From an uncultured delta proteobacterium (lineage in GTDB: Bacteria > Desulfobacterota > Binatia > DP-6), in contig CAWKPA010000003.1 in assembly GCA_963851365.1 (NCBI GenBank), positions 64,390 to 128,389 on the forward strand: a stretch of DNA of 64,000 nucleotides. Direction: 5' to 3'. Numbering within the stretch: position 1 is the stretch's first letter; the number at the start of each line of letters is the position of its first letter. Both the position numbers and the translations under genes were made by a program. Positions 1 through 35,243 of this stretch are shown one piece after another. The notes below the pieces were generated by a model, which was given only the letters and a program-made list of their open reading frames with translations, searched no databases and had not been told where the DNA came from.

Positions 1-1183
1 AGTCGTTGCACAGGAGCCCCGCCAGCAAACACTCCCGTGCGGCGACGTTGTCGGCCAGGGCGGGGCCCTGCCGGCTCACGCACTGGACCTCGCCGAGCGG
101 CTCGTAGCCGCTGCCGGACACCTCGTAGACCGCGTCTCCCGCCAGGATCTCTCTCACGGTCATCTGGTTGACGGTGAGCGTGCCGGTCTTGTCCGAACAG
201 ACGATCGTGGTGCTTCCCAGAGTCTCGACGGCGGGCAGCTTGCGGATGATGGCTCGACGGCGAGCCATCCGCGCGACGCCGATCGACAGCGTGATCGTGA
301 CCGCCGCCGGCAACCCTTCCGGAATCGCTCCGACCGCCAGGGCCACTGCCGCCATGAAGATATCGAACGCTCCTTGCCCGCGTAACCACCCGACGGCGAA
401 CGTCACGCTCGCCAGCCCCAGAATCACCACCAGGAGAAGACGGCTGAACTTCGCGATCTTGCGAGTCAGCGGCGTCTCAAGCACGTCGGCAGTGGAGATC
501 AACTTCGAGATGTGGCCCACCTCTGTGCTGGCGCCGGTCGCGAAGACCACGCCCCGCGCCTGACCGTAGGTCACGAGCGTGGAGGTGTAGGCCAGGTTAC
601 GGCGCTCCGCGAGCGAGACATCACCAGTCATGACGTCCACGTGTTTGCTCACCGGGACGGATTCACCAGTCAGAGCCGACTCGTCGACTTGGAGGTCGCG
701 GCAGCGAAAGAGGCGGAGGTCGGCCGGCACCTTGTCGCCCGACTGCAAGACGACGATGTCCCCCGGCACGAGTTCGGTGGAGGAGATCCGCCGCATCTGA
801 CCAGCTCGCAGGACGCTGGCTTCCGTGAGCGTCGTCTGGGCCAGCGCCGCCAGCGCTTTCGCGGCACTGGACTCCTGCAGGAACCCGATGACACCGTTCA
901 CGAGGACGACGCCAAAGATCACCCCCGAGTCGACCCACTCATGCAGAAACGCCGTGATCGCTGCCGCCGCCAGCAGGATGTACACCAACGGTGTGTGGAA
1001 CTGCAGCAAGAACCGTATCCACGGCCCGCGCGCTGTGGCAGCGGGAATGACATTGGGTCCGAATCGCGCCTGACGCGCCTGAAGCTCCAGGATGTCGAGC
1101 CCTTTTTCGGCGTCCGTTCCCAGCAACTGCAGGACTTCGGCCGCGGGGAGTTGGTGTAGGTTCTCTCTGACGAGCACGTCCAC
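1..1183 (-). CDS. P-type cation-transporting ATPase, P2-type (Ca2+/Mg2+-like), N-terminal ~394 aa; C-terminus lies beyond the window start
   Basis: Minus-strand translation gives a Cation_ATPase_N-like start (LDILELQARQARFGPNVIP), the TGES actuator motif (ALTGESVPV) and the phosphorylation motif CSDKTGTLT. A GTG start at about 1183 follows a GAGGA RBS. The ORF is open to position 1. Confidence 0.85.
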   Translation of the reverse strand, partial: MDVLVRENLHQLPAAEVLQLLGTDAEKGLDILELQARQARFGPNVIPAATARGPWIRFLLQFHTPLVYILLAAAAITAFLHEWVDSGVIFGVVLVNGVIGFLQESSAAKALAALAQTTLTEASVLRAGQMRRISSTELVPGDIVVLQSGDKVPADLRLFRCRDLQVDESALTGESVPVSKHVDVMTGDVSLAERRNLAYTSTLVTYGQARGVVFATGASTEVGHISKLISTADVLETPLTRKIAKFSRLLLVVILGLASVTFAVGWLRGQGAFDIFMAAVALAVGAIPEGLPAAVTITLSIGVARMARRRAIIRKLPAVETLGSTTIVCSDKTGTLTVNQMTVREILAGDAVYEVSGSGYEPLGEVQCVSRQGPALADNVAARECLLAGLLCND

Positions 1184-1395
1184 GGTTTGTCATCCTCGGA
1201 TTCGTCGGGAGTCGGTGACGGCAGTCGCCGCATGCGACACGCCACCGGCCTGTCGTCGGCACTCTTACATTGTGTGCCCCGCTTCCGGCTTCCTCCCGCG
1301 GCTTTCCTCCGTCCCACGCGGGCATGCGCAACTCCTGCGCCCCGGGGAGCCGGCGGAGGGCGAGAACGGCCGGCGCGGCGGCGCGTTCCTCATGC

Positions 1396-1644
1396 TCACC
1401 GTCCGTCGAAGACCTCGTCCGGCAAGCCGGTAGCGTACTCGACGTTGCGGAGGACGATACGGCTCGACGTGCGCTCTGGAACGACCTCCATCGTGATCTC
1501 GACCGGCGTAGGGTGGCCGGCGATGGACTCCACGCAATCGATCGTGCGAATCTTGTAGAGCATGCCGTTGGGCGCGAAGTGTTCGGTGCGCCGCGGTAGA
1601 AAATCCTGCTTGTCGAGGCACCGGATGACGCGACCGTACCACAC
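1396..1644 (-). pseudogene. C-terminal fragment of an unknown protein (possibly LolA-like outer-membrane lipoprotein-sorting family), N-terminus lost
   Basis: An 82-aa ORF ending in ...RNVEYATGLPDEVFDGR. It abuts the truncated IS256 transposase directly and has no upstream coding continuation. The family assignment is from memory of LolA_like C-termini and is weak. Confidence 0.3.
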
Positions 1645-1649
1645 TCAGC

Positions 1650-2294
1650 CGTGGCGCGCATGTGACCGGCGAGGATGGCGCGGGGTGGCTGGCCTTCGTG
1701 CGCGGCCTGGTCGCGCGGGGCCTCGCCGGCGTGCAGCTCGCGATCTCGGACGCACATCCGGGCTTGCGGGCGGCGCTTGGGGCGACGTTGCCCGGCGCCG
1801 CGTGGCAGCGGTGCCGCACCCATGCCATGCGCAACCTACTGACGAAGGTGCCGAAGAGCGCGCAGGGGCTGGTGGCGACGCTGGTGCGCACGATCTTCGC
1901 GCAGCCCGATGCCGAGCTCACGCGGGCGCAGCTTGCGCGCGTCGTCGAGCAACTCACGGCGCGCTGCCCCGACGCGGCCCACCTCTTGGCCGACGCCGTC
2001 GAGGACCTGCTGGCCTTCACGGCCTTCCCGAAAGAACACTGGCGGCAGATCTGGTCGAACAACCCGCAGGAGCGGCTCAACCGCGAGCTGAAGCGGCGGA
2101 CGGACGTCGTCGGCATTTTCCCGAACCGCGCTGCCGTTGTGCGGCTGGTCGGGGCGGTGCTGGCGGAGCAGCACAACGAGTGGGCGGTGGTGCGGCGCTA
2201 CCTGACCGTGGACGGGCTGCCCAAGCCGACGCCGGTGTCGCTGCCTGCGCCGGAGTCGCCGGAGGAGACGGTGAAGACCACGCGCGCCGCGTAG
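1650..2294 (+). pseudogene. IS256-family transposase, C-terminal ~210 aa only (N-terminal half missing)
   Basis: The translation ISDAHPGLRAALGATLPGAAWQRCRTHAMRNLLTKVPK...FPKEHWRQIWSNNPQERLNRELKRRTDVVGIFPN is the conserved C-terminal region of IS256/mutator-type transposases. Full-length proteins are about 400 aa. Confidence 0.8.
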
Positions 2295-2560
2295 CGATCA
2301 CCGGAGGGTGCCGCGAGGCGCCCGTACACCACTTGCGCGGACGTGGCCCCCCGGCTGCCTGTATCGTGCGATGGCCAGCGATCGGGCGCGGTAGAACTGG
2401 TCGAAAGGCATCCATGGCGGAGCACGATCGGGCTGTACTCCCTCCAGGACCGAACGGCCACATAGACGGTCTACGCCTCCACGATCATCTGCGAGTCTCT
2501 GGAGGAGCGGTTCCCCCCCCTGCTCGACCCCGTCATGGACGGGCATGTGCACGAGGCCGT

Positions 2561-3400
2561 TCAGATCGGCTCGCGGATCCGCTCCAGGCCCCGCGCGATG
2601 AGACCCACGTCCGCCGGATCGCTCCAGTGGCTGAACCCCGGACCAAGAAACCGGGGCAGTTTTGCCGCGACTCGCCACAGCAGCCCCGGAGACACGTACA
2701 GGTAGCGCCAGTGCTCGAGGCGTCTGCCGGCCATGATCGGCCGCTCAGGCTCCAGTAGCACCTCTTGAATCCCCCCCATCGCGCTGACGAGCACGCGGCA
2801 GGCCTTCGCCAAGGCACGCGCGTGCCGCAGACGATCGCGCAGGCCGGTACCATACAGATGCTCGTACACTTCGGAGGCGACCGATTGGTGCTCCATCTCC
2901 TCGAGGCAATGCCACTCCATGAGGCGTCTCACCTCGGGCACCATGCCCGCCAGCACCGCCGGGGACTCGAGCACCGTCTTCGCGATGGCATAGATCGCGT
3001 ACTCGCCGACGATCACGAACGTCAGCGCACCGCGCACATCGTCTTCGTCCGTCAACGTGCGTAGTCTCTCCTCGGCGAGTGCCGCGGCGCGCTCGACATC
3101 GTAACCGAGCGACGCAAGCCGCGCGTTGAGGCTGGCGTGGTGACGCGAGTGCAACGCTTCCTGCACCAGGAAAGACTCCACCTGCGCTCGCAGCGCAGGA
3201 TCCGTGACCTTCGGGCGGGCCTTCTTCATGGCACGGATCAGGAACCCCTCCGTCTTCGGTGCCAAAATCGAGAGCGCGTTCCAGAGATGGCTCGTGTACG
3301 GGTTGCCACCGCAGTGCAGCGCGGGGGTATCGTCGAACGAAAACTCGAGACCATGCCGTACGGGGATCCTGAAGGGCGTCTTTGCCGCCGCAGTCGTCAT
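2561..3400 (-). CDS. predicted metal-dependent hydrolase (COG3687 / PF10118-like)
   Basis: 279 aa with SHLWNALSILAPKTEGFLIRAM...VQEALHSRHH, the signature of this family. It overlaps the upstream TetR gene by 4 nt (ATGA). Confidence 0.6.
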   Translation of the reverse strand: MTTAAAKTPFRIPVRHGLEFSFDDTPALHCGGNPYTSHLWNALSILAPKTEGFLIRAMKKARPKVTDPALRAQVESFLVQEALHSRHHASLNARLASLGYDVERAAALAEERLRTLTDEDDVRGALTFVIVGEYAIYAIAKTVLESPAVLAGMVPEVRRLMEWHCLEEMEHQSVASEVYEHLYGTGLRDRLRHARALAKACRVLVSAMGGIQEVLLEPERPIMAGRRLEHWRYLYVSPGLLWRVAAKLPRFLGPGFSHWSDPADVGLIARGLERIREPI

Positions 3401-4023
3401 CGTCTGTTCTCCTTTCCGATCGCTGCGCTCCGACGCGTCTCGACCAGTAACGCCAGGGTCGAGCCGATCTCACCCAGCCGCCGGTCCAACCCGTCATCGT
3501 CTTGATCCAGGTGATGCTGCAGCGCCGCGCCTTGCAGAAGGCCGAGGGCCGTTTGTGCCAGCTGATCGACGTCGCGCACGGGACCCGACACCTCTTCGAT
3601 TGCGCGCGAAATGATCGCGCGGGACCGCTGCATGACTCGCTGGAGCGCCGCACGAATGGCGGGCACGGAGCCGGCACTGTCCAGCTGCAGCCGGATCAGC
3701 AGCCGGATCGGCGTGTGTGGGGTGAGGATGAGGGCCCGCCAACCGCGGAGCCCAGCTGCCAGCCGCTGTGGGAACGACGCCACCGGAGCGACGGCCGCTT
3801 CCAGCTCGTCAAGCCACGCGTCGACCATCGTCTCGACCACGGCCGCGATCAGCCCTTCCTTGTTCCCATAGTGGTAGTAGAGGGTTGGAGGCTGCACACC
3901 CGCCCGCCGGCAGATTTCGTTCACGGTGGCTCCCGCATAGCCGCCATGGGCGAGCAGCTCCGTAGCGGCCTCGAGGAGACGGGCTTTTCCCCCACTCTCG
4001 CTCGAAGTCTCCCTGCTGGGCAT
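3397..4023 (-). CDS. TetR family transcriptional regulator
   Basis: N-terminal HTH ARLLEAATELLAHGGYAGATVNEICRRAGVQPPTLYYHY. The in-frame ATG is at 4021-4023. It forms an operon with the downstream hydrolase. Confidence 0.8.
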   Translation of the reverse strand: MPSRETSSESGGKARLLEAATELLAHGGYAGATVNEICRRAGVQPPTLYYHYGNKEGLIAAVVETMVDAWLDELEAAVAPVASFPQRLAAGLRGWRALILTPHTPIRLLIRLQLDSAGSVPAIRAALQRVMQRSRAIISRAIEEVSGPVRDVDQLAQTALGLLQGAALQHHLDQDDDGLDRRLGEIGSTLALLVETRRSAAIGKENRR

Positions 4024-4453
4024 ATAGTGAGCACTACATACACTAAAGCGGCTTGTCAAAGGGCCCGCAGTTCCAAGCCGAGCGCGACGCGGGCGCGCAG
4101 TCTCGGCAGCCTCGGGATCCTGGTCATGGCGATTGCGCCGAGTCTGTTCGCGAGTCGGCTGATCCCGCGCTGGGTCAGCAACTCTTCCGCGATGGAATAC
4201 CCCACGGTGTAGGGGTTGAGCGTGTCGTCCTCCCCTTCGCCGTGCACGGCCCGCGCGACGTGACCTTCTCGAAGTCTGGTAGCTGCCAGCGCTCGTCGAA
4301 AAACGCCCCGGTCGGGCTGTACGATCGGCGGGACGCGCAACCGATACGTGTTGGCGCCGTTCAGCCAATTGCCAGCGCTGGCAACCCCGACGTGCGGCGC
4401 CGCCCGCTCCGGAACCACTGGGCACGGCCGTCGTTCTCGGCTATCGCCAATCG

Positions 4454-5389
4454 ATGCGCATTCCCTCCCCGTTCTTCGCCCTCCTGGGCGTCGTCCCCGC
4501 GCTCATGGCTTTACACCTCGCCCCGCCGGCCGCGCGCGCGGAGACCGTGCCGGCCGCTACCGGCGCACCGTCCCTCGACGAGCTGAAGAACGCCACGTTC
4601 AGAGGCTTCGACGAGCCTGCGGGGCCAGTCACCCTCTCCGGTGGTCGGTGGGAAGGGAAGCCGTACGTGCAGGGGGGCGCCTCGCTGCCCGTAGTGACGC
4701 TGGCGGACGACTTCCGGCTCGTCGGCGACCTGGACGGCGACGGCAGCGAGGAGGCGGTGGTGCTGCTGGCGCAGAGCAGCGGCGGCACCGGCGAGTTCAT
4801 CTATCTTGCCGCCGTCGATCGCAAGGACGGACAGCCGCACAACGTCGCCACCACGCTCCTCGGCGATCGCGTGGACGTGCGGGACGGCAAGATCGAGAAG
4901 GGGCGCATCACCCTCGACGTGGTACAGCCGGGCGACAGGGACGCCCGGTGCTGCCCCGGTGACCTCGTGACGCGGAGCTGGACGCTCGCGAGCGCCAAGC
5001 TGAAGGAAGGCACCCCGGCGCGCACCGGACGGCTGTCGCCCGACACCCTGGCCGGTACGGAATGGGTCCTGCGGCGTTGGGCCTGGAACGAGTCGGCCCC
5101 GGGCGAGCCAGGCATCACGCTGCGGTTCGCGGACGGCCGCTTCGCGGGTAGCGCGGGCTGCAACTCGTATACGGCGTCGGTGCAGGCCGGCAAGCAGCCA
5201 GGCGACATCTCCGTCGGACCGGCGGCCGCAACGCGCAAGATGTGCCCAGAGCCCGCCATGGGCATCGAGTCCCGCTTCCTGTCCGCGCTCGGGGCCGTCG
5301 AGCAGTTCTCGTTCCGCGACGGACGGCTGGTACTGACCTACCCCCCCGACGGCAAGACTCTGCTGTTCGACCGCGCGCCGGCCCGGTAG
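4454..5389 (+). CDS. secreted protein with C-terminal META/HslJ-like (DUF306) domain
   Basis: Signal peptide MRIPSPFFALLGVVPALMALHLAPPAARA. C-terminal AGSAGCNSYTASV...ATRKMCPEPAMGIESRFLSAL matches the META/HslJ domain. Confidence 0.6.
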   Translation: MRIPSPFFALLGVVPALMALHLAPPAARAETVPAATGAPSLDELKNATFRGFDEPAGPVTLSGGRWEGKPYVQGGASLPVVTLADDFRLVGDLDGDGSEEAVVLLAQSSGGTGEFIYLAAVDRKDGQPHNVATTLLGDRVDVRDGKIEKGRITLDVVQPGDRDARCCPGDLVTRSWTLASAKLKEGTPARTGRLSPDTLAGTEWVLRRWAWNESAPGEPGITLRFADGRFAGSAGCNSYTASVQAGKQPGDISVGPAAATRKMCPEPAMGIESRFLSALGAVEQFSFRDGRLVLTYPPDGKTLLFDRAPAR

Positions 5390-5512
5390 CCGCACCGCAA
5401 CCCTTCCGGGCTTGCCGCCCGTCCTCGCGATTGGGAGGGTCGCGAAAGCCACGAAGGCACCGGCCTCCGCGACACGCCGAAGAACTGGGCAAAGCTGGAG
5501 GCTCGAGCCACC

Positions 5513-6330
5513 GTGATGTCTCTGGAGATCGCCGAGGGAACCTTCGACTACATGCGGTGGTTCCCTGAGGGGAACAAGGCCGCCCTCTACCGACCACCGG
5601 AAGCAGCGCCAGCGCCCCGGATCCCCACGGTTTCAGAGTACGCGGAGCACACCTGGCTGCCGCGGAAGGTTCCCCCGACCGTGCGTGCGAGCCTCGCCGA
5701 CACCTACCGGTGGGCGCTTCGGCACATCCTGGGTGGCCGACGAAGGTCGATCCCGAGCCCGACCCCTTCACCGAGGAGGAGCAAGACCTGCTCATCGACT
5801 ATTTCACCAACCGGAACCAGCATTATCTGGCCCTCGTCGTGACGATGTTCCGCACCGGGCTCCGGACGGGGGAAGCATGCGGCCTGCGGTGGGGGGACAT
5901 CGACCTGCGCGGCAGGAAGTTGACCGTGCGTCGGTCCCGCACCATGGGCGAGGACAACCCGCCGAAGACCCGGAAGAGCCGTCGGACGATCACTCTGCTG
6001 GAGAACGTCGTCGCAATGCTCAGGCGCGTGCAGCCGCTCCATGCCGGCCCGGACACCTTCGTGTTCGCCACGCAGCAGGGCACCCCACTCGACGGGGAGC
6101 GATTCGTGGAGAAACACTGGAGGCGGGCGCTCCGCGCGACCGGCGTGCGACCCCGGAAGTTCTACGCCACCCGCCACACGTTCATTTCGCTGGCCCTCAC
6201 GTGGGGTTTGAACCTCAAGTGGCTGGCCGACTACTGCGGAACGTCGGTGGAGATGATCGAGCGCCACTACGGCCGGTTCATGAACGCCGACTCGGGGCAG
6301 CTCGCGATTCTGGCAGGTCGCGGCGGATCG
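5513..6330 (+). pseudogene. tyrosine recombinase / phage integrase remnant (N-terminally truncated, one frame shift, apparent internal deletion)
   Basis: Frame 2 carries the SAM-like N-domain (EYAEHTWLPRKVP...ADTYRWALRHILG). Frame 1 carries the catalytic domain (RTGEACGLRWGDIDL, KSRRTITL, HATRHTFISLALTWG...MIERHYGRF). About 80 aa between the two domains are absent. It reads toward the tRNA-Ser 3' repeat at 6468-6494. Confidence 0.7.
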
Positions 6331-6467
6331 GGAGGACCGAGCGGCGAGCGTCAACCAATGGCAGCGACGGCGGGGCGTTCAACCCGTCCGGCGCGCGATT
6401 CCGCGCTCAAGACCGGAACCTTTGCCGGAACCTTTCGGAAGCCGCGCGTAACCTCGCGATCTACCAA

Positions 6468-6494
6468 AGCGGAGGGGGGGAGATTCGAACTCCC
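6468..6494 (-). repeat. 27-bp direct repeat identical to the 3' end of tRNA-Ser (T-arm plus acceptor 3' strand), the distal att site of the island
   Basis: agcggagggggggagattcgaactccc is identical to 35242-35268. No matching acceptor 5' strand (cccctcc) lies upstream, so it is a fragment and not a second tRNA gene. Imperfect similarity continues about 30 bp further left. Confidence 0.8.
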
Positions 6495-6882
6495 TTATCA
6501 GAAGATGCCGAGACGCGCCGGAAACGCTGGAAACCGTTGTGCCGCATGGGTTTCTTGCATCGCGAAGCCATTGGCCGAAAGAGGCCGAAAGCGGCCATTC
6601 TTGACCTAGAAGAGTGCACAAAAGGTGCACAGCAGCGACCGGATACGTGGCTCGTACCCACCCGGAATGAGCTCATGCCGCCCAAGATGCAGGCTGAAAC
6701 GAAGGGCTCGCACAGTGGTCGTCGCCTTGTGCAGGACGTCCTCGGACGCGACGAACTACATGGGGCAGGTGAGCTAGTCGCCACGGCATCCTACATGACA
6801 CTCGCCCCGAAACGACCAGCAAAAGTAGTCGAGGCGCAGGCTGCAGTGCTGCCGCCTGTGCGGGGTTGATCGGGACGGAGCA

Positions 6883-7125
6883 GTGGGGTCGATGCGGTGT
6901 GGCGGGATGACCATCCTCGATGCGCTCGCCGACCCGGCGTTGTTCGCGCCGCACTTCCGGATGCCGACGTGGGCGCCGTGGCGGACCGCCTCATCGAAGT
7001 TCTTATCCGCCCTCCCACATGATCGCGCGCAAATCCGGCCGGTCCACCGCGACGACGAAGCGCGGAAGACCATCTGCCTCGACGTCGCGCCGGAGCAGAA
7101 CGACGGCCAGCCCTGTTTGCCTTGA
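6883..7125 (+). other. short ORF with a possible phage terminase-large-subunit-like N-terminal motif; degraded
   Basis: MTILDALADPALFAPHFRMPTWAPWRTASSKFLSAL resembles the N-terminal segment of the terminase at 33154 (VVCDPVRFARGLL...). Downstream frames are broken and there is no clear domain. Confidence 0.15.
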
Positions 7126-8289
7126 AATCCTTGTCTGCCTCGTTCCCCTTGCGGATGATCCCGATGGTCACGTCCTGTGGGCGCTGACGAACTCGATGGT
7201 GACTGGTTGGACGTTGATCAACCTGGCGGCATCCTCCGAACAGACCCGCAGCTCGGTGGAGTTCAGCGGAGAAGGATACCAACCGCGATAGGCTCGTTCG
7301 ACGAGATGGCGGGACTGCACGAGGTCGTTCCAGATGGCGGCGGGGATATGTACACAGGCGACGCCCCCCTCATCGGGACCTCCGCGTACCAGGGCATTTG
7401 CGGAATGATTGTAGACCGTATCGAGGCGGCCGCGGGATCACGCGACATCAGTCCGCCGGCGCCGACGTCTTGCGATCGCAGGAACTGACCGGCCACCAAG
7501 CGCACATTGCTCTGCACACCCCGATAGACGAGCATCTTTGTGCCGATGCAGGGCGGCGGTGGCGTCAGCAGCCAGATTGGTGGCGGGCTTTCGCTCGGCC
7601 GCAGCGGGCGTAAGGGCATGACGACCTCCGCGTCAGGATTTCGTCGCAGCCTAGCAAGCGAGAAGGCGTCCCCACAACTCATCCTCGTCATCCGGAGGAT
7701 TGTCAGCCACCTCGGGCTCCCCTGATGGCCGACGCATCCTCGTCGGAACACCCTGCCCGCCCCGCCCGCCCACGACTCGACGCAGCTCGCGGCGCACCTG
7801 CAATCGCTGCTCATGGACCTCGGGCTGGAACGCCGGGCGAAGCCGGTGCCCGACTTGCAGTCCTAGCTCGCGGCGAAGGGCACCGGCGGGGAGCCGATCT
7901 CGAGACCCGGGTCGTGCAGCGCACCGGCAGCATCGTCTTGGTCGCGCACTGGGAGCCCGGCGTGGTGGAGTTCGCCGTCTACGACGAGGCGGTCCAACCC
8001 GAGCGGGTCGAGCACTGCGGAGCGGGCATTGCGGACTGGCGGATCGACCCGCGCGCACCGGTGTTCCGTCGCTGGCAGTGATTTCTGGGATCGCGGAACC
8101 GCTCACCGACCGCGTGTATGAGCTCTCGCCGCGCCGCCCACTGATTGCACCTGGCCATCGCTGGCCTCCTCGGTCCCGCTGGTAGCGGATTCCGTGAGGC
8201 AACGGCCCGCGCTCGGTAACGAATCAGCTGCGGCAATGCGATGGAGAGATGTAATTGTCGCTCGGCGCCCCTCGCGCGACTGAGCTTCT

Positions 8290-12370: not shown

Positions 12371-12479
12371 CTTTTGAATCCTCTATCGGCTTTCGCCGAG
12401 AGCCGATGTGCGGTCGCTATTACGGAACGGCAGCGATCGGGTAGACGCGCCGGGCGGCAGGTTCGTAGCGACCGCCGCC

Positions 12480-13481
12480 TCAGACGCTGCGATAGCCGCC
12501 GTTCACCCAGGCAAGCAGCATCTCGGCGAACTCCTCGGCGTTGTCCTGGTAGCTGAAGTGGCCGCAGCGTTCGAAGATGCGCAGTTGACTGCGCTTCAGC
12601 CGCTGGTGCAGGCGCCGGGCATTCTCTTCAAGCAAAAACACGTCGAGGTCACCCCAGAAGATCTGCACCGGAAGGTCGAGGCCGGCCAGGTGGGGGTCCA
12701 CGGTTGCCAGGTTCTCGGGGTAGGTCTTGAACCAGTAGGTGATCGGACCCATCCGGCCGTCGTAGGAAGCGACGTAGTCGGCCACCTCGGCGGCATGGGG
12801 CACGTAGTTCACGCAGGCCAGACGGTAGGCCCCTTCGACAAAGGCCTGGGCGCCCGCGACACGGAAGATCGTGCGCCAGAAGCCGGAGTCGACGGCCTTG
12901 TTGATGATGCTGCCGTTGCTCGTCGGCAGGATGCCCGGGCCGTCACCAATCAGCAGGCTGGCCAGCTCGTGCTTCTGGTGGATCGCGTAGTGCAGCGCGG
13001 CGGCCATGCCGACGTCGGGCCCTACCATGTGGATATGCTTGAGCCCGAGCTCGCGCACGAACTCGACGAGGAAGCGGCTCTGCGCCTCGAAGCTCATGAA
13101 CTCCAGCCCGCCGCTGCTGCGGCCGAAGCCGGGCAGGTCGAGCGCGACCAGCCGGCAATGCGGCGCGAGCGTGCCCCAGATCGCGTCGAAGCACAGGATG
13201 CTCTGCGGCAGCGGGCACAACAACAGCACGACCGGCCCGTCCTTCCTTCCGCCCTGCGCGATGCGCACCTGGGTGCCGGCCACCGTGCGCATCTCGGTCT
13301 TCATGGTGAACCGGGCCGGGCGCGATTCGGCCCGGCCGGCGCCGGGGCGTGCCGCCTGCTTGATCTGCGAGAACTCCGGTGTCACGGCGAGCAGCACGCC
13401 GGCGTTGAGCTTGCCGAAAGGTCCGATCGGGTCGGGGGTGGTTTCCATGCGCGTCTCGATCTCTGGGATGGAGCGGATCAA
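12480..13481 (-). CDS. alpha/beta hydrolase fold protein (paralog 1)
   Basis: 333 aa: LLLCPLPQSILCFDAIWGTLAPHCRLVALDLPGFGRS...HMVGPDVGMAAALHY...ERCGHFSYQD. About 80% identical to the protein at 25347-26315. Confidence 0.75.
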   Translation of the reverse strand: MIRSIPEIETRMETTPDPIGPFGKLNAGVLLAVTPEFSQIKQAARPGAGRAESRPARFTMKTEMRTVAGTQVRIAQGGRKDGPVVLLLCPLPQSILCFDAIWGTLAPHCRLVALDLPGFGRSSGGLEFMSFEAQSRFLVEFVRELGLKHIHMVGPDVGMAAALHYAIHQKHELASLLIGDGPGILPTSNGSIINKAVDSGFWRTIFRVAGAQAFVEGAYRLACVNYVPHAAEVADYVASYDGRMGPITYWFKTYPENLATVDPHLAGLDLPVQIFWGDLDVFLLEENARRLHQRLKRSQLRIFERCGHFSYQDNAEEFAEMLLAWVNGGYRSV

Positions 13482-15248
13482 GGCTTACGGCCATCGGGCT
13501 CGATGAAGCCGTGCCACGGGCTCCAGTTGTCGGCGACCGGCACGAGGCCCTTCTGGGCAGCGAACTGGTCGTAGATGGCGATCAGCTTCTTCAGCCGCTC
13601 GGGTTGCGCGGCGTCGAGCGGCTGCGTTTCGCCCGGGTCGTTGCGAATGTCGTACAGGTGCCACTGGCCGTCGCCGTACATGCCCGGTCGCACCCGCATC
13701 GCCTTGTAGTCGCCGGCCACGACATAGCCGTTGCCGAACAGCTCGAAGACCACTGGCTGCGCTTCGGTGCGCGGCTGCTCGGCCCGGCCTTCGAGGAAGC
13801 TGCGCATCGAGACGCCAGAAGGCGCGGCGATCTTGCGGCCCCGGTAGCCCTGCGGCGCCGGCTGGACCCCGGCGTAGTCCAGGATCGTCATCGGCAGGTC
13901 CTTGACGTTCGCGTACTCGGCGCTCAACTGCCCGCGACGTGGGGACGGCTGGCTCCGCGGCGGGACCACGATCAGCGGCGTGCGCACGCCGCCTTCACCG
14001 ATGAACCACTTCCACCACGACAGGCCGCCGGTCACGGCATTGGCGAAGTCGGTGCCGATGAAGGCGTAGGAATCGCCCCAGCCGATGTGCTCGAAGGCCT
14101 GGCTGAAATTCGCGCTGCACCCACTTCGTGGCGCCCGGATTGCTGAGCGCGCCCTGGTCGTCGAAGCCCTCGGGGCCGTTGTCGGACAGGTAGACGATCA
14201 GCGTGTTGTCGAGCTGGCCGGTCTCGCGCAGGTAGTTCAGCAGCAGGCCGATGTGATGGTCCTGCGACTCCATCATCGCCGCGTAGGTGGCCATGACGCG
14301 CGCGAAGCGCCGCTTGTCGTCCTCGCTCAGCGACGACCAGCTGCGCAACAGGTGGTTCTTGCCGGCGTCGGGATACGGCGCGTCCTTCGGGAGGATCCCG
14401 AGCCGCTTCTGCGCCTCGAAGCGTTCGCGCTTCAGGCCCTCGAAGCCGAGCGCGTAGAAGTGCTGCTCGTACTTGTCGACCAGGAAGTCCGGCGCCTGCA
14501 CCGGCGCATGCGGCGTGGTGTAGGCGACGTAGGCGAAGAACGGCTTGCCGGTTGGGCGGCCCTGCTCCAGGTAGCTGAGCAGCTTGGCCGTGTACAGGTC
14601 GTCGGAGAAGATGCCCGTGGGGCGCACGACCCGCTCGCCGTTCTCGAAGTAGGGCTCCCTCGGGATCCTTCCGGCCTTGACGTCGGCGGCGGCTTGCGGG
14701 TCCTCGAGGTCGACGTGGAACACGCCGTCGTTCCAGTGGTTCGCGCCGCCGGTATAGATCCCGTAGCTGCGGTCGAAGCCCCACTGGGCAGGCGGCTCGC
14801 CGCCGTGGCGCGTGCCACCGAGGTGCCATTTGCCGACCATGTAGGTGCGGTAACCGGCGTCTTTCAGCAGCTCGGCGATGGTGGCCGTGGTGCGGGTCAG
14901 GTAGGCCTCGTAGCCGCGCTTGCCCTTGGCGCCGGGATAGAGCGAGTAGTCGAACGCGGCGAGCCCGATCTCAACCGGGTTGTTGCCCGTCAGCAGCATG
15001 GCGCGCGTGACCGAGCAGACCGGCGAGGCATGAAAGCGCGTGAACGTGGTCCCGTGCTGGGCCAGACGGTCGATGGTCGGCGTGCGAGTCGCCGCTCCGG
15101 TGAAACCGAAGTCTCCGAACGCGGCGTCGTCGGCGACGATCAGCAGGACGTTCGGCCTCGTTTCCGACGCTGTCTGTGCGTGCGCGGGCGCTGTTGGGGT
15201 GCAGAAACAGGCCCACGCGGCCAACAAAAACAGGGTCAAGGATCTCAT
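13478..15248 (-). CDS. sulfatase-family (alkaline-phosphatase superfamily) enzyme, paralog 1; split across two frames near 14000-14050
   Basis: Signal peptide, then NVLLIVADDAAFGDF...FTRFHASPVCSVTRAMLLTGNNP...YMVGKWHLGG. The C-terminal half is in ORF 13478-14035. About 80% aa identical to 23551-25311. The active-site pentapeptide is C-S-V-T-R, not the canonical C-x-P-x-R. Confidence 0.75.
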
Positions 15249-20828: not shown

Positions 20829-20946
20829 AACGGGATCTGCTTCGCATCGGTCTGCTGCTCGGCGTCGTGGGCATCGCCCCATGGGTGAGCGGAGCGTAGG
20901 CGCGATAAAGCGGCGAAGGGCGACATAACGCCCGAACCCAGACGTT

Positions 20947-22440
20947 GACGTGTAGGCCCCAAGTGCAAATGTCCGGTTTCTCCAAAGTAGAGATGTCCGC
21001 CTGGACCCCACAGTGCCGGGTGCCATGGCGACGACCGTGGGGCTGACCATGGGGGAACTGGACCGCCTGCAGATCCTGACCCGGCTCGCCGAGCGGCGGC
21101 TGACGCAGCGCGCGGGCGGCCGCGCTGCTCGCGGCTGAGCGAGCGCCAGGTGCGGCGGCTCTATCGGCGCGTTCCAGGACGACGGCGCGGCGGCGCTGGC
21201 CTCGCGGCGGCGCGGTCGCCCGAGCAATCGGCGGCTGCCCGCGCGCGTCCGCGACCGGGCACTGCGCGCTGGTCCGCGCGCGCTACGCCGACTTCGGGCC
21301 GACCTTCGCGCACCAGAAGCTCACCGAGGACCACGACCTCGTCCTGTCGGTCGAGACGCTGCGCGGCTGGATGATCGCCGCCGGGCTCTGGGTGCCGCGC
21401 GTCCAGCGCGCCCGCCGGAGCTATCCGCCGCGGCCGCGCCGCGCGTGTCCCGGCGAGCTCGTCCAGATCGACGGCTCCGACGCACGCCTGGTTCGAAGAC
21501 CGCGGGCCCGTCTGCACGCTGCTCGTCTACGTCGACGACGCCACCAGCCGGCTGATGGAGCTCTGCTTCGCCGACGGTCGAGTCGACGTTCGACTACTTC
21601 CGCGCGACGCGCCGCTACCTCGAGCGCCACGGCAAGCCGATGGCCTTCTACAGCGACCGGCTGAGCGTCTTCCACGTCCAGGCCCGCGACCGCGCCCAGG
21701 GCGGCGCCCGGGCTGTCGCAGTTCGGCCGGGCGTGCAGGCCCTCAACATCGACCTCTGTGCGCCAACAGCCCGGAGGCCAAGGGCCGCGTCGAACGCGCC
21801 AACGGCACGCTGCAGGACCGGCTCGTGAAGGAGCTGCGGCTCCGCGGGCTCAACGATCCCGTCGCGGCCACGCCGTTCCTCCCCGCGTTCATGGCCGACT
21901 ACAATCGCCGCTTCGCCAAGCCGCCCGCCGTCGCCTACGACGCGCATCGGCCGCTGCGCCCGGCGGACGACCTCGACCAGGTCTTCACGCTGCAGACGAC
22001 GCGCCGGATCAGCCGCCAGCTCACCGTGCACTACAAGCGCGACCTCTACGTGCTCACCGACACCGTCGCGACTCGCCGCCTGCGCGGGGCCACCGTGGAC
22101 GTCCGCGAGGCGGAGGACGGCACCGTCACGTTGCACGCCCAGGGCGCGTCCGCTGGCGGCCCGCCTCTTCCCGAAAGATCACGCGCAGATCGCTCCGGGA
22201 GCCGTCGTCGCGTACCCGCATCTCGACGGCGCCTTCGACCTGGATCGCGGCGCAGCAGCGCGAGCGCGACCAGGCGCGGCTCGCCAATCCCAAGCTCAGC
22301 GCGGCGCGAGAAGCAGCGGCTGCGCGCGGGCCGGCCGCTGCGTGTCCCGGCCTCCCCCACGGAGTGAAACCGGACATCTCTACTTGGGGCAAAGGCGGAC
22401 ATTTCTACTTTGTGTTGACATGACATGACATGACATGACG
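20947..22440 (+). mobile_element. ISNCY-family (IS1202-like) insertion sequence, copy A; transposase reading frame heavily disrupted
   Basis: The ends are shared with copy B: left gacgtgtaggccccaagtgcaaatgtccg..aaagtagagatgtccg, right ...ctactttgtgttgac(atgac)4. Transposase fragments MATTVGLTMGELDRLQILTRLAERRL, GELVQIDGSDA, FYSDRLSVFHV, AKGRVERANGTLQDRLVKELRLRGL sit in several frames (21025-22367). It is inserted inside a REP-X copy (20893-20946 and 22441-22471). Confidence 0.7.
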
Positions 22441-22648
22441 ACCCTACCTCCCCCCCCGGGGCTGCCGCGGACGAAGACGCAGGCGATGCTGCCGAGCGAG
22501 GACGCGGTGCTCTTGCTCCTCTTCGGCCTCCTGATGAGCGGGCAGATTCGCTCGCGCAAGATCGACGGCTGGCAGGAGCTGCCGGCGGTCATGGCGACGC
22601 GGAGAAAGGCTGCGTAGCCGCGGATATCAACTCGGACTCACGCGCGGA

Positions 22649-23563: not shown

Positions 23564-25311
23564 TCCTGTCCTGTATTGCCGCCGGCGTGATCGCAGGGAC
23601 GGTGTCTCCGTACGCCCGGGCGGAGAAGCCCGTAAAACGGCCAAATGTCCTGTTGATAGTCGCCGATGACGCGGCACTGGGCGATTTCAGTTCTACCGGC
23701 GCCGTGACCCGAACGCCGAACATAGATCGCATCGCGCAAGAAGGGATCACCTTTACGCGATTCCATGCCTCACCGGTGTGCTCGATCACGCGGGGCATGT
23801 TGCTGACCGGAAACAACCCGGTGGAAATCGGTCTCGGCGCCTTCGACTACTCGCTCTATCCGCCGGCGGAGGGCAAGCCGGGCTACGAGGCCTACCTGAC
23901 CCGAACGACGGCCACGATTTCCGAACTGCTGCGCGACTCCGGCTACCGCACCTACATGGTCGGCAAGTGGCACCTCGGCGGGACCCGTCACGGCGGCGAT
24001 CCGCCGATCGAATGGGGATTCGATCGCAGCTACTCGATCTACACCGGTGGCGCCAATCACTGGAACGACCAGGTATTCCACATCGACATGCACGACCCGG
24101 AAGTTGCCGAGCAGGTCAAGGCCGGCAAGATCCCGGCTGAGCCGTACTATGAGGACGGCAAGCGCGTCGCGCGGCCCACGGGCGTCTTCTCGGACGAGCT
24201 CTTCACGACCAAGCTGCTCGAATACCTCGAGACGGACCGCGAGAGCGGCAAGCCGTTCTTCGCCTACGTCGCCTATACGACTCCGCACGCACCGGTGCAG
24301 GCGCCGGACTTCCTCATCGACAAGTACGAGCAGCACTTCTACGAACTCGGCTTCGATGGCCTCAAGCGCTCTCGTTTCGAGGCCCAGAAGAAGCTCGGCA
24401 TCATCCCGCAGGACGCAAAGTACCCCGACACGAGCAAGAACCACCTGCTGCGCGCCTGGTCGTCATTGAGCGAAGAAGACAGGCGCCGGACGGCGCGCGT
24501 CATGGCCACCTACGCGGCCATGCTGGAATCGCAGGACTACAACGTGGGCCTGATCCTCAACTATCTTCGCGAGACCGGCCAACTCGACGATACGCTGATC
24601 GTGTACCTGTCCGACAACGGGCCCGAAGGTACGGACGTCCAGGGTGAGCTGAGCAACGCTGCTGCCACACAGTGGGTGCAGAATAACTTCAGCCAGGCCT
24701 TCGACGACATCGGGGACGGCAACGCGTTTTCATTCATCGGTACAGATTTTGCCAATTCCGTTACCGGTGGCCTGTCATGGTGGAAGTGGTTCATCGGCGA
24801 AGGCGGTATCCGCACGCCGCTGATCATCGTTCCGCCCACCAACCGGGCATTTGCCCGCAAGGGCGACAAGACCTCCGAGTACGCCAACGTCAAGGACGTG
24901 CCGACCACGATCCTTGACTACGCCGGAGTCGAGCCGGCCCCGCAGGGGTACCAAGGTCGGAAGATCGTCGCGCCGTCCGGAGTGTCGATGCGCAGCTTTC
25001 TCGAAGGCAAGAGCGAGCGCCCTCGCACGGAAAACCAGTGGGTCGCGTTCGAGCTGTTCGGCAACAGTTTCGTCGTCGCGGGTGACTACAAGGCAATGCG
25101 CGTCCGGACAGGCATGTACGGCGACGGCCAGTGGCACTTGTATGACATTCGCAACGATCCCGCTGAAACCACTCCGCTCGACGGTGCGCAGCCCGAGAGG
25201 CTCGAGCGAATGATCGCGATCTACGACAGTTACGCAAAAGAGAAGGGCATCGTGCCCGTCGCCGAAAACTGGAGTCCCTGGCACGGCTTCATCGACGAAA
25301 AGAATCCCTGA
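23551..25311 (+). CDS. sulfatase-family enzyme, paralog 2 (intact, 586 aa)
   Basis: Signal peptide. NVLLIVADDAALGDF...FTRFHASPVCSITRGMLLTGNNP...YMVGKWHLGG. C-terminal WHLYDIRNDPAET. The active-site pentapeptide is C-S-I-T-R. Confidence 0.85.
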   Translation: MRTLILSCIAAGVIAGTVSPYARAEKPVKRPNVLLIVADDAALGDFSSTGAVTRTPNIDRIAQEGITFTRFHASPVCSITRGMLLTGNNPVEIGLGAFDYSLYPPAEGKPGYEAYLTRTTATISELLRDSGYRTYMVGKWHLGGTRHGGDPPIEWGFDRSYSIYTGGANHWNDQVFHIDMHDPEVAEQVKAGKIPAEPYYEDGKRVARPTGVFSDELFTTKLLEYLETDRESGKPFFAYVAYTTPHAPVQAPDFLIDKYEQHFYELGFDGLKRSRFEAQKKLGIIPQDAKYPDTSKNHLLRAWSSLSEEDRRRTARVMATYAAMLESQDYNVGLILNYLRETGQLDDTLIVYLSDNGPEGTDVQGELSNAAATQWVQNNFSQAFDDIGDGNAFSFIGTDFANSVTGGLSWWKWFIGEGGIRTPLIIVPPTNRAFARKGDKTSEYANVKDVPTTILDYAGVEPAPQGYQGRKIVAPSGVSMRSFLEGKSERPRTENQWVAFELFGNSFVVAGDYKAMRVRTGMYGDGQWHLYDIRNDPAETTPLDGAQPERLERMIAIYDSYAKEKGIVPVAENWSPWHGFIDEKNP

Positions 25312-25346
25312 GTCACGTCATTCAACCCAATGGAATTCACGCAGCC

Positions 25347-26315
25347 ATGAATACAACTTCCGATCCGATTGGTTTTCTCGGCCGGCTGAACGCCAGTGTG
25401 CTGCTCGCGGTTACGCATGAGTATGCTCAGGTCAGGAATGCCGCGCGTCCCGGCGCCGGGCGTGCCGAGTCCCGCGCGGTGCAGTTCAGTATTCGTCCCG
25501 AGTTTCGCAGCATCGATGGCGTCAAGGTTCGCTTTGCCCAGGGTGGAAAGCAGGATGGTCCCGTCGTGCTGCTGCTGTGTCCGCTGCCGCAGAGCATCCT
25601 GTGCTACGAGCCGATCTGGGACAAGCTTGCACAGCACTGCCGGCTGGTCGCGCTGGACCTGCCCGGATTCGGACGCAGCGAAGGCGGCCTCGAGTTCATG
25701 GGCTTCGACGCCCAGAGCCGCTTCCTGGACAAGTTCATCCGCACACTGGGACTCAAGCAGGTTCACATCGTCGGCCCGGACGTCGGCATGCCGGTGGCAC
25801 TGCATTACGTGATATACCGTCAACACGACGCAGCCAGCGTGATCGTGGGTGACGGTCCGGCCATTGCGCCCTCGACCAACGGCAGCATCATCGACAAGAT
25901 GGTGGACTCCGGGTTCTGGCGCATGATGTTCGCCGTTACCGGATCCAAGGCTTTTGTGGAAGGCGGCTGTCGCCTCGGCTGCGTGAACTACGTTCCCAGC
26001 ACCGCGGAAGTCGCGGATTACGTCGCGAGTTATGCCGGGCGCATTGGCACGGTGACGCAATGGTTCAAGGCCTATCCCGAGAACCTCGCAACGGTCGACC
26101 CGCACCTCGCCAGCCTCGACCTGCCGGTGCAGCTCTTCTGGGGCGATCTCGACCAGTTCCTGCTCGTCGACAACGCCCACCGCTTGCAGCAGCGGCTCAA
26201 GCGCAGTCAATTGCGGGTGTTCGAGCGCTGCGGGCACTTCTCTTACCAGGACAAGCCCGAGGAATTCGCCGAGATGCTGCTCACCTGGGTGGGCGGCGGG
26301 TATCGCGGCGTCTGA
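25347..26315 (+). CDS. alpha/beta hydrolase fold protein (paralog 2)
   Basis: 322 aa, about 80% identical to 12480-13481. LLLCPLPQSILCYEPIWDKLAQHCRLVALDLPGFGRS...HIVGPDVGMPVALHY. Confidence 0.8.
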   Translation: MNTTSDPIGFLGRLNASVLLAVTHEYAQVRNAARPGAGRAESRAVQFSIRPEFRSIDGVKVRFAQGGKQDGPVVLLLCPLPQSILCYEPIWDKLAQHCRLVALDLPGFGRSEGGLEFMGFDAQSRFLDKFIRTLGLKQVHIVGPDVGMPVALHYVIYRQHDAASVIVGDGPAIAPSTNGSIIDKMVDSGFWRMMFAVTGSKAFVEGGCRLGCVNYVPSTAEVADYVASYAGRIGTVTQWFKAYPENLATVDPHLASLDLPVQLFWGDLDQFLLVDNAHRLQQRLKRSQLRVFERCGHFSYQDKPEEFAEMLLTWVGGGYRGV

Positions 26316-26433
26316 GCGGGCGCACCAGCTCTGTACAAACATAGAGGCAGCATGACCGATACGTACCAGACTGATTCGGAGCGTAGGCGCGATAAAGCGG
26401 CGAAGGGCGACATAACGCCCGAACCCAGACGTT

Positions 26434-27918
26434 GACGTGTAGGCCCCAAGTGCAAATGTCCGCTTTCCCCAAAGTAGAGATGTCCGCCTGGAGCCCCCAG
26501 AGGTGGCGCCATGGCGGACACGCTGGGGCTGACCATGGGGGAGCTGGACCGACTGCAGATCCTGACTCGGCTCGCGGAGCGCCGGCTGACCCAGCGCCGG
26601 GCCGCCGCGCTGCTCGGGCTGGGCACGCGCCAGGTGCGGCGACTCTCCCGCGCTTTCCAGGGCGACGGCGCCGCGGCGCTGGCCTCGCGCCGGCGGGGTC
26701 GCCCGAGCAATCGGCGGCTGCCCGCGCGCGTCCGCGACCGGGCACTGCGCCTGGTCCGCGCGCGCTACGCCGACTTCGGGCCGACCTTCGCGCACCAGAA
26801 GCTCACCGAGGACCACGGCCTCGTCCTGTCGGTCGAGACGCTGCGCGGCGGGCTCATCGCCGCCGGGCTCTGGCTGCCCCGCGCCCAGCGCGCCCGCCGC
26901 AGCTACCCGCCGCGGCCGCGCCGCGCGTGTCCCGGCGAGCTCGTCCAGATCGACGGCTCGGAGCACGCCTGGTTCGAAGACCGCGGGCCGGCCTGCACGC
27001 TGCTCGTGTACGTCGACGACGCCACCAGCCGGCTGATGGAGCTGTGCTTCGCCGAGGTCGAGTCGACGTTCGACTACTTCCGTGCGACGCGCCACTACCT
27101 CGAACGACACGGGAAGCCGATGGCCTTCTATAGCGACCGGCTGAGCGTCTTCCACGTCCACGCGCGCGACCGCGCCCAGGGCGGGCCCGGGCTGTCGCAG
27201 TTCGGCCGGGCGTGTCGGGCCCTCAACATCGACCTGCTGTGCGCCACCAGCCCGGAAGCCAAGGGGCGCGTCGAACGGGCCAATGGCACCTTGCAGGACC
27301 GGCTCGTGAAGGAACTGCGGCTGCGGGGGCTCAACGATCCCGTCGCGGCCACGCCGTTCCTCCCCGCGTTCATGGCCGACTACAATCGCCGCTTCGCCAA
27401 GCCGCCCGCCGTCGCCTACGACGCGCATCGGCCGCTGCGCCCGGAGGACGACCTCGACCAGGTCTTCACGCTGCAGACGACGCGCCGGATCAGCCGCCAG
27501 CTCACCGTGCACTACAAGCGCGACCTCTACGTGCTCACCGACACGCGTCGCGACCCGCCGCCTGCGTGGGGCCACCGTGGACGTCCGCGAGGCGGAGGAC
27601 GGCACCGTCACGTTGCACGCCCAGGGGCGTCCGCTGGCGGCCCGCCTCTTCCCGAAAGATCACGCGCAGATCGCTCCGGGAGCCGTCGTCGCGTACCCGC
27701 ATCTCGCCGGCGCCTTGACCTGGATCGCGGCGCAGCAGCGCGAGCGCGACCAGGCGCGGCTCGCCAATCCCAAGCTCAGCGGGCGCGAGAAGCAGCGGCT
27801 GCGCGCGGGCCGGCCGCTGCGTGTCCCGGCCTCCCCCACGGAGTGAAACCGGACATCTCTACTTGGGGCAAAGGCGGACATTTCTACTTTGTGTTGACAT
27901 GACATGACATGACATGAC
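26434..27918 (+). mobile_element. ISNCY-family (IS1202-like) insertion sequence, copy B, with near-intact transposase (26511-27846, one frame break near 27560)
   Basis: A 463-aa ORF with MADTLGLTMGELDRLQILTRLAERRLTQRRAAALLGL (HTH), GELVQIDGSEHAWFEDRGPACTLLVYVDDATSRL, FYSDRLSVFHV, ATSPEAKGRVERANGTLQDRLVKELRLRGLND, FMADYNRRFA. The true C-terminus ...RVPASPTE is in ORF 27577-27846. Imperfect ~45-bp terminal IRs. It is inserted in a REP-X copy (26380-26433 and 27919-27951). Confidence 0.8.
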
Positions 27919-28179
27919 GCCCCGACGCCCCTCCCCCCCCGGCTGCCGCGGCGAAGCCACAACGAGGAACGGCCGCATCGGGCGCTGGGGCGGAAGCCCC
28001 CACGCACTTTCTCCCGCGGCCGTCGGAACCCCGAGAGTCCAGGAATGCGGTGTCTACTTGACGGGGCTGACTACGCCTCGGCCGGCCTGTTGGCGAACAC
28101 GTAGTCGTACGACTCGACTGACGGATTCGGTGCGCGAGGGCCAACGCGAGGCATCCTCAGATGATCCGAGAGGCTGGAG

Positions 28180-30621: not shown

Positions 30622-31257
30622 TCAGGGCGCCACGGCCAAGTGCGCGGTCTTGGCCGTCGCTTCGGCCACGGCGGCCGCCGGCGCGATGTGCTGGAGGTAG
30701 ACGCTCGTCGTGTGCAGCGAGCGGTGCCCGAGGAGCTGTTGGATCGCGTTCAGCGACGTCCCGCTCTGCACCTGGGCAAGCGCCCAGCCGTGGCGGAGGC
30801 CGTGCGGGTGGACGCGCTTCTCGATGCCGGCTTTCGCCGCGAGCCGCTTGCAGAGCGTCCTGACGTAGGAGTCCCACAGCGGCTCGCCGCGGAGCGTGCA
30901 AAAGAGCGGATGCCGACCCGTGAGCCGGAGCCGCTTCCGGCAGTCGAGCCAGCGGTCTACCGCCTCGGCCGCGTCGCTGGGCAGCGGCGCCGTGCGCGCC
31001 TTGTCGCCCTTCCCGTGGAGGATGCGGAGCGAGCCACCTGCGGGGTCGAGGTCTTTCGGAAAGAGCGCCAGCGCCTCCGAGATGCGCAGCCCGCTCCTGA
31101 ACAGCACAGCCAACAGGGCGCGGTTGCGGATGCCGGTCGGCGCACGCCGCGAGCAGGCGGCACGGAGCGCCTCGACGTCGGCGAGGCCGAGCGGTTCGGC
31201 GGGGAAGCGGCGGGTCGGTTTCTTCCGTCGGGGCGCGGGGGTGCGTTTCCTGGGCAT
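30622..31257 (-). CDS. tyrosine recombinase (XerD-like small integrase)
   Basis: 211 aa: RNRALLAVLFRSGLRISEALALFPKDLD...ILHGKGDKARTAPL...HPHGLRHGWALAQVQSGTSLNAIQQLLGHRSLHTTSVYL. It carries the R, K, H-x-x-R, H and Y catalytic residues. Confidence 0.8.
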   Translation of the reverse strand: MPRKRTPAPRRKKPTRRFPAEPLGLADVEALRAACSRRAPTGIRNRALLAVLFRSGLRISEALALFPKDLDPAGGSLRILHGKGDKARTAPLPSDAAEAVDRWLDCRKRLRLTGRHPLFCTLRGEPLWDSYVRTLCKRLAAKAGIEKRVHPHGLRHGWALAQVQSGTSLNAIQQLLGHRSLHTTSVYLQHIAPAAAVAEATAKTAHLAVAP

Positions 31258-33154: not shown

Positions 33155-33471
33155 CCGCCACCACCGCCTGGACGAGCGTCGAGCGACAACGTCTCGCCGT
33201 CCTTCCCCGCTAGCTCCAGCCCCTGCGTGGGCCTGCCGAAGCCGCGATCGGCGAGCCAGGTGGCCGCCTCGAGGCGGTCGCGCAGCTTCACGCCTTCGAC
33301 CTCGCCCCGGAAGACGCGCACGACGAACGCGACCAGCTCCTCCCCCTCGCGCGTCTGCGCGCGGATGGCGCTGACGATGCCCTTGGGGCGACCGCCGGGG
33401 TTCCCGGAGTGCCCCTTCGGGAACGGGCGCCCCGGGCCCCGGCGCGCTGTTTCGGCGCTGTTTTGAGCCAA
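33154..33471 (-). CDS. DUF5681-like small phage protein (putative terminase small subunit / packaging partner)
   Basis: MAQNSAETARRGPGRPFPKGHSGNPGGRPKG is the characteristic N-terminal motif of DUF5681 proteins, which precede terminase large subunits. The 3' end is uncertain because the ORF runs out of frame into the terminase gene. Confidence 0.5.
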
Positions 33472-35241: not shown

Positions 35242-35243
35242 AG

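Follow-up and report, generated by a model that had tools for sequence, protein, structure and literature searches.

Tandem array of integrated elements, with a displaced integrase pseudogene, probably present at a tRNA-Ser(TGA) gene of an uncultured Candidatus Binatia genome

We analysed a window of 64,000 nucleotides (the whole stretch of DNA considered here) from an uncultured Candidatus Binatia genome, on a contig that is probably metagenome-assembled. The window has a GC content of 69% and contains one tRNA gene, a tRNA-Ser(TGA), with a copy of the 3' end of this gene lying at a distance of 28.7 kb from it (Table 1). The results of our repeat search showed that the two copies are identical over 27 bp (6468-6494 and 35242-35268); the same repeat was also scored as a 27-mer with one mismatch (6469-6495 and 35243-35269), and the number of matches expected for the 27-mer, from 100 shuffles, was 0. 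The repeat begins with the 5' strand of the T stem and covers the tRNA as far as its 3' end, and its two copies are direct repeats. At one end of the segment that they bound is the intact tRNA and, at the other, the direct repeat of its 3' end, which is the layout of an island integrated into a tRNA gene. These two are the only full copies of the core within the window. A search of positions 1-5390 for a third att copy returned none with three mismatches or fewer, and none by short-word BLAST.

Table 1. Features of the tRNA-Ser(TGA) locus and of its left flank (positions in the window).
Feature	Position	Strand	Basis
P-type ATPase N-terminus, running off the window	1-1183	minus	Pfam
Mosaic left flank, not attributable to the old element on present evidence	1-5389		Pfam, GC3, synteny
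LolA-like fragment	1396-1644	minus	Pfam
IS256-family transposase, C-terminal fragment	1662-2294	plus	Pfam
Metal_hydrol	2561-3400	minus	Pfam
TetR	3397-4023	minus	Pfam
META-domain protein	4454-5389	plus	Pfam
Integrase pseudogene, N-terminal part: putative arm-DNA-binding domain and start of core-binding domain; start codon region degenerate	5390-5728	plus	tblastn, family HMM, translation, DNA alignment to L004
Integrase pseudogene, C-terminal part: other reading frame, complete catalytic domain	5734-6330	plus	Pfam PF00589, tblastn, family HMM
Tandem GGAACCTTT motif (12-nt period) in the arm between integrase and tRNA fragment; putative integrase-binding site of the old att	6415-6435	plus	Motif search and relatives
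27-bp copy of the tRNA-Ser(TGA) 3' end; putative internal att core between old element and 28.7-kb segment	6468-6494	minus	Repeat search
28.7-kb repeat-bounded segment	6495-35241		Pfam, PHROG, family HMM, GC
Distal arm of the 28.7-kb segment; GGCCGAAAG x2 (6573-6591), GTGCACAAAAGGTGCAC (6614-6630)	6495-6640		Motif counts, short matches to the L085 att region
Inner copy of the 152-bp arm, carrying CCGGCCAAAGC	33599-33750		88% identical to 35093-35244
tRNA-proximal arm of the innermost element; CCGGCCAAAGC x2 (at 35188 and 35199); ends at the tRNA 3' end	35093-35244		Motif counts, repeat
Intact tRNA-Ser(TGA), putative shared integration target	35243-35330	minus	ARAGORN

Outside the repeat-bounded segment, on the far side of the distal 27-mer and reading toward it, lies a tyrosine-integrase pseudogene (~5390-6330, plus strand), hereafter the remnant. 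Our tblastn searches showed that residues 8-118 of the homologue P0004 match positions 5399-5728 with 66% identity and that residues 190-383 match positions 5734-6315 with 74% identity in a different frame. A family HMM, built from 90 full-length homologues, matched the remnant at profile positions 18-118 and 183-383, with a score of 345 bits, and positions 119-182 were missing. The lesion is a single internal deletion of ~208 nt (about 71 codons) accompanied by a frameshift, and translation revealed no in-frame stop in either of the two segments. The earlier note had described this integrase as frameshifted and internally deleted, as the tblastn and HMM results agree, and as reading toward the tRNA fragment from outside the repeat-bounded segment, with which its coordinates and strand are in accord; of the span proposed there, 5513-6330, the end holds, while the start has to be moved about 120 nt further left, to ~5390. 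The coding sequence begins directly after the META stop codon (5387-5389), and its first ~7-17 codons are degenerate, with no recognisable start codon.

The Phage_integrase profile (PF00589) was matched in the ORF at 5710-6609 (1.6e-16; profile positions 4-165 of 172), its 61 bits exceeding the cut-off of 27.1. In the 5513 frame, the last part of Arm-DNA-bind_2 (PF12167) was matched with 17.1 bits, which is below the cut-off of 22. Inspection against the invariant columns of 11 intact homologues showed that the catalytic residues (Arg, Lys, Arg, His and the Tyr nucleophile) are kept in the remnant, in the motifs TGLRTGE, PKTRKS, ATRHTF and ERHY. The 5710-6609 ORF (299 aa) is identical to the database protein P0001 and continues through the att fragment. 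The coding sequence is thus spread over two frames instead of the single intact frame of about 380-430 codons, and by this anatomy the remnant is a pseudogene, and not a working member, of an arm-binding tyrosine integrase family.

The 28.7-kb segment carries genes for sulfatases, hydrolases, an S8 peptidase and an Mrr nuclease, two IS copies and several gene fragments. An apparently intact tyrosine recombinase of 211 aa, consisting of the catalytic domain only, is found at 30622-31257 (minus), 4 kb from the tRNA, and is adjoined by a frameshifted remnant of a large terminase (about 31357-33100, minus). No integrase of the remnant's family was detected in 6495-35242 with the family HMM (six frames, filters off), and the ORFs at 6673-8202 gave no Pfam match; neither att end of the segment has an integrase of the segment's own beside it. 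An ORF of 401 aa (32474-33679) was considered as a novel integrase and rejected, its C-terminal half being the ATPase domain of a large terminase.

The two IS copies, of ~1.5 kb, are direct (20890-22457 and 26377-27936), about 85-100% identical across aligned blocks and mostly 92-98%, with terminal inverted repeats of ~25 nt and an HTH-type transposase, disrupted in the first copy and intact in the second (26511-27902). Between them lies a 4-kb block (CoA-transferase fragment, sulfatase, hydrolase), in a composite-transposon-like arrangement. A sulfatase and alpha/beta-hydrolase pair is present twice in inverted orientation (12473-15157 and 23639-26322) with 76-80% identity, and the left sulfatase of this inverted pair is split into two ORFs.

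Each end of the segment has a repeated arm motif. The distal arm has GGCCGAAAG at 6573 and 6583, and the GGCCGAAAG/CCGGCCAAAGC motifs, which are similar to the arm of an element on another metagenome contig (locus L085, described below), are essentially confined to the ends of the segment. The tRNA-proximal arm belongs to a 152-bp sequence that is present in two direct copies enclosing 1.34 kb of small ORFs, one of them DUF5677-like; no tRNA core was found after the inner copy. This duplication may be the arm or end of a third, mostly deleted layer, or the product of an unequal crossover. The motif of these arms is absent from the arm of the remnant, to which the arms of the segment are unrelated, and this supports the reading that the 28.7-kb segment would derive from a different element, or elements, than the remnant.

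We then compared the remnant with its intact relatives, which are 384-470 aa long and have arm-binding, core-binding and catalytic domains, and inspected the genomic context of five of them; intact integrases of 384-431 aa share 60-74% identity with the remnant. At loci L001-L003 (74% identical) and L004 (67% identical), a complete tRNA-Ser(TGA) faces the intact integrase in convergent orientation, and the integrase ORF extends to the 3' end of the tRNA. Among the 120 best homologues, at least 30 have an ORF whose tail is a translation of the reverse-complemented tRNA-Ser 3' end, with all three frames represented, and an integrase that reads into tRNA-Ser is therefore the norm of the family. 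At L001, the tRNA-Ser is flanked immediately on its 5' side by a second, unrelated integrase (5441-6541, minus; 366 aa; Int_N and Phage_integrase) and on its 3' side by the family integrase, which abuts it.

L001 and L004 carry a tandem motif, GAAACCTTT x2, with a period of 12 nt, located 30-55 nt before the tRNA end. The corresponding GGAACCTTT motif of the window occurs at 6415 and 6427 and nowhere else in it, and its distance to the tRNA end is as in L001 and L004. This motif is translated as ETFxETF, KPFxKPF or GTFxGTF, depending on the homologue; since the homologues read it in different frames, it is the DNA that is conserved and not the peptide. The conserved motif is likely to be an arm site bound by the integrase, and we infer the same function for the motifs of the other arms.

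Comparison of the junction in the window with those of L001 and L004 showed that they are identical through the 26-nt core and diverge exactly where the body of the tRNA should continue. Given this collinearity, positions 5390-6494 constitute a canonical tRNA-proximal end of a family element that has become separated from its tRNA. Together with its arm and the 27-mer, the remnant would be the end of an older, small integrative element that was cut off from the tRNA by a later integration. The 27-mer has the features of an att copy internal to a tandem array, with the canonical integrase-arm junction of another element on its far side.

The intact elements of this family are small. Those of L004 and L087, where both limits can be estimated, are about 6-8 kb long, and that of L085 is cut by the start of its contig. 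Directly upstream of the integrase, L004, L085 and L087 have HTH_17 and/or replication (primase/helicase-type) genes. No far-end repeat was found for the elements of L001, L004, L085 and L087; the contigs of L001, L004 and L085 begin inside or near the elements. A search of IMG/VR with the arm motif gave matches that were all unrelated, and the integrase profile retrieved relatives at 22-36% identity only; known viral contigs thus include no member of the family.

A parallel to the window was found in L085, an unrelated metagenome contig, and in L086, which has the equivalent array in an independent assembly. The order at these loci is an intact family integrase (P0014), an arm, a 29-nt fragment of the tRNA-Ser 3' end, a second arm and a truncated family integrase that reads toward the fragment, lacks its first 136 residues and covers residues 137-396. 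This order is that of an independent tandem array, and it gives the same picture as the window, with a truncated integrase immediately beyond the att fragment of its neighbour. The two family integrases of L085 converge on the one 29-nt fragment (3788-6116; JGI 3300005538, Ga0070731_10002317). A motif of 17 nt, GTGCACA(A/G)AAGGTGCAC, is near-identical in the att arms of the window (6614-6630) and of L085 (5242-5259); in the window it lies toward the newer island, in L085 toward the truncated integrase.

The integrase of L085 int1 and that of L087 are co-directional with the tRNA fragment, an attP design opposite to the convergent design of the remnant in the window. The tRNA-derived core accordingly occurs in both orientations within the family (L085 4985-5183 and L087 11296-11374 versus L001 5260-5430 and L004 7880-8046). 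The T-loop sequence of the tRNA at the likely crossover, TTCGAA, is palindromic, and a crossover there might permit both designs.

The presence of an integrase at the distal end of an element, beside the tRNA fragment, in L085 int1 and L087, together with the lack of a family integrase in the island, raises the alternative that the remnant was originally the integrase of the 28.7-kb island and was moved outside the repeat by an inversion or another rearrangement. We regard this as very improbable. In order and orientation, the integrase, the GGAACCTTT arm and the reverse complement of the tRNA end agree with the intact junctions at every base up to the end of the core. After an inversion, the fragment would point the opposite way to the tRNA, yet the copies are direct repeats; and both arms of the island share the other motif, which the arm of the remnant lacks. 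The layout calls for no inversion, and the possibility raised in the earlier note, that the remnant belongs to the right-hand island through such an event, did not materialise. Its proposal of serial integration, with the remnant as part of a separate and earlier element at the same tRNA-Ser, agrees well with the collinearity of integrase, arm and 27-mer with the intact relatives and with the different arms of the segment.

We also examined the composition of the window and its synteny with relatives. The GC content of the 28.7-kb segment is 60-71%. To the right of the tRNA it is 71-76% in most of the 1-kb windows; the exceptions there are the region at 40-43 kb (66-67%) and a few windows at 67-69%. 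To the left of the tRNA, GC and GC3 are everywhere below the core values, the GC3 being 0.84 for the left genes, 0.81 for the island genes and 0.92 for the core genes. Six Binatia relatives, found through Hsp33 (72-82% identical), are syntenic with the window to the right of the tRNA. None of the six has a match to 1-35243 beside Hsp33, and all lack the tRNA there. The 28.7-kb segment, then, is unlike the core in composition and is absent from the same place in relatives, which are also without the tRNA at that place.

In the absence of a tRNA beside Hsp33 in the relatives, no empty site could be demonstrated, and neither such a site nor an intermediate arrangement was seen among the six. The Hsp33 relatives (loci L005-L011) differ among themselves directly downstream of Hsp33. 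The adjacency of tRNA-Ser and Hsp33 (35331-35465) is peculiar to this genome, and the group is variable at this site. Further to the right, genes for cytochrome c oxidase subunits I, III and IV lie in a block (39200-44700; GC about 66% at 40-43 kb) that is absent at this position in all the Binatia relatives, and synteny resumes on both sides of it.

The left flank bears on the extent of the old element. The earlier note had this element still extending leftward over the META protein, the TetR-hydrolase pair, the IS256 fragment and the P-type ATPase, and if it did so it would be a large element closed by a third att beyond the window. The closeness of the left GC3 to that of the island, the lack of synteny of 1-35243 with the relatives, and the fact that the conserved block that follows Hsp33 in the relatives is not reached within the window are all compatible with such an element. 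However, the intact members of the family are far shorter, at 6-8 kb, and no HTH_17 or primase/helicase-type gene was found by Pfam to the left of 5390; the remnant abuts the META stop codon; and the LolA-like and IS256 genes are mutually truncated, abutting fragments. Relatives of the ATPase (84-87% identity) lie in a Usp/CsrA/CNNM cluster without an integrase, a tRNA or the other genes of the window, and those of the META protein, on metagenome contigs (the best 58% identical), have no common context and no integrase neighbour. With no att-like repeat in 1-5390 either, we consider a surviving large element unlikely; the leftward extension lacks support, and the region is a mosaic. The left region is probably foreign or rearranged and may consist of debris from older islands. 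Most likely, the old element lost its body, up to the start of the integrase, by deletion.

An artefact of assembly, that is, a chimeric join of strains or loci at the tRNA-derived repeat, has also to be weighed, given that the 515-kb contig is probably from a metagenome-assembled genome and that its nearest relatives in the genome collection searched are all MAGs. Logan short-read contigs from two other samples (ERR15459714 and ERR12037369) contain the hydrolase, TetR and META genes followed by an ORF at the position of the remnant, so that the left junction is not confined to a single assembly. In these samples the contigs end within the remnant and at the IS fragment, which would fit an artefact. 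A repeat of 27 bp, however, is below the usual k-mer size of assemblies, two independent samples carry the META-remnant side as well, and the equivalent array of L085 and L086 was recovered in two independent assemblies. A chimeric origin of the locus seems to us highly unlikely.

These results make it likely that integrated elements are arrayed in tandem at one tRNA-Ser(TGA) in this locus. In this explanation, a small integrative element, with its attP at and just beyond the 3' end of its integrase gene, would have entered the 3' end of the tRNA, giving the layout of a tyrosine integrase with an arm-binding domain, an arm with GGAACCTTT x2, and the tRNA. One or two elements of another att-arm type (CGGCCAAAG-type motifs) would later have entered the same core, each newcomer contributing a tRNA 3' end of its own. 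The old integrase-arm junction would have been left with only the 27-bp old tRNA end, now 28.7 kb from the tRNA. The displaced element would then have decayed, through loss of the body upstream of the integrase and through the ~208-nt deletion and the frameshift in the integrase, and the newer segment would also have lost its integrase to become an att-bounded, non-autonomous island.

The repeat, the anatomy of the pseudogene, the collinearity of the junction, the different arms of the newer segment and the parallel of L085 are the observations on which the array stands. Against it are the absence from 1-5390 of a third, leftmost att copy, which the old element should have and which would bring the number of copies to at least three, and the lack in the 28.7-kb segment of a family integrase that would account for the segment's own integration. 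The missing outer copy may lie outside the window or may have been deleted. A rearrangement at the tRNA is a conceivable alternative, since the relatives have no tRNA beside Hsp33.

That the old element came first is what is usually inferred from such a layout, and the final topology, which would be identical for either order, does not prove it. The reverse would be that the 28.7-kb island was already at the tRNA-Ser when the element of the remnant entered the island's distal 27-bp att fragment. The 27-mer holds the whole T-arm and the 3' strand of the acceptor and may suffice as an attB, and the 28.7-kb segment, without an integrase and with its two IS copies and many gene fragments, looks at least as decayed as the remnant, which has a single lesion and no in-frame stops. 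In L085, the sole parallel case, it is nevertheless the element on the tRNA side that has the intact integrase, the truncated one lying beyond the fragment, and we hold the reversed order to be unlikely.

The locus is a clean example of a tRNA gene that collects successive mobile elements while the displaced integrases decay, in a poorly studied uncultured phylum (Binatia). For annotation, it is to be described as a pseudogene with att sites, and software that finds islands must allow for integrases outside the repeat-bounded segments. The locus is also a pointer to a family of tRNA-Ser(TGA)-specific integrases with a recognisable att signature. Taken jointly, the observations could be read as a widespread, undescribed family of small, non-phage, tRNA-Ser(TGA)-specific elements, with arm sites in the 3' coding end of the integrase and two mirror-image attP designs, convergent (L001, L004, window) and co-directional (L085 int1, L087), of which the 28.7-kb segment would be cis-mobilizable cargo. 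This joint reading is speculative, and we would give it little chance of being right in full; if it were true, the integrase-less segment could still be moved by incoming family members.

In att-int modules of the lambda and pSAM2 style, the att site includes arm-type sites and the integrase gene reads toward attP. The modules described here resemble them in the N-terminal arm-binding domain, in the transcription toward att and in the repeated short arm motifs beside the core. They differ in that the tandem motif, a putative site, is inside the 3' coding end of the integrase and in that the ORF often runs into the tRNA.

Accretion in tandem at the 3' end of one gene, with decay of the older members into att-bounded or integrase-less remnants, is established for the streptococcal tandems of ICEs, IMEs and cis-mobilizable elements (CIMEs); examples are elements related to ICESt1/ICESt3 in Streptococcus thermophilus and IME/CIME tandems at tRNA genes (PMC5704250). 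The locus resembles these tandems in the successive integrations into the 3' end of one gene with an internal att between elements, and in the decay of the older members, whose integrases are lost or broken while their att sites persist. Unlike them, it belongs to an uncultured Binatia host, no conjugation or mobilization genes were seen in it, and its oldest member is reduced to an integrase pseudogene and an arm.

Tandem genomic islands are also found downstream of ssrA in Dehalococcoides (PMC3146451). The likeness here lies in islands stacked at one small-RNA gene with direct repeats of ~20 bp of its 3' end, in a crossover in or near the T-loop, in an integration module beside the repeat and in the presence of some members without integration genes. 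The Dehalococcoides islands involve a serine recombinase and a tmRNA, in contrast to the tyrosine integrase and tRNA-Ser of our locus, where, unlike in Dehalococcoides, only two full repeats are visible in the window. Accretion at tRNA and tmRNA genes being already established, no concept is changed by these findings; the phenomenon is ordinary and known, and the locus is a new instance of tandem accretion in an uncultured Binatia lineage.
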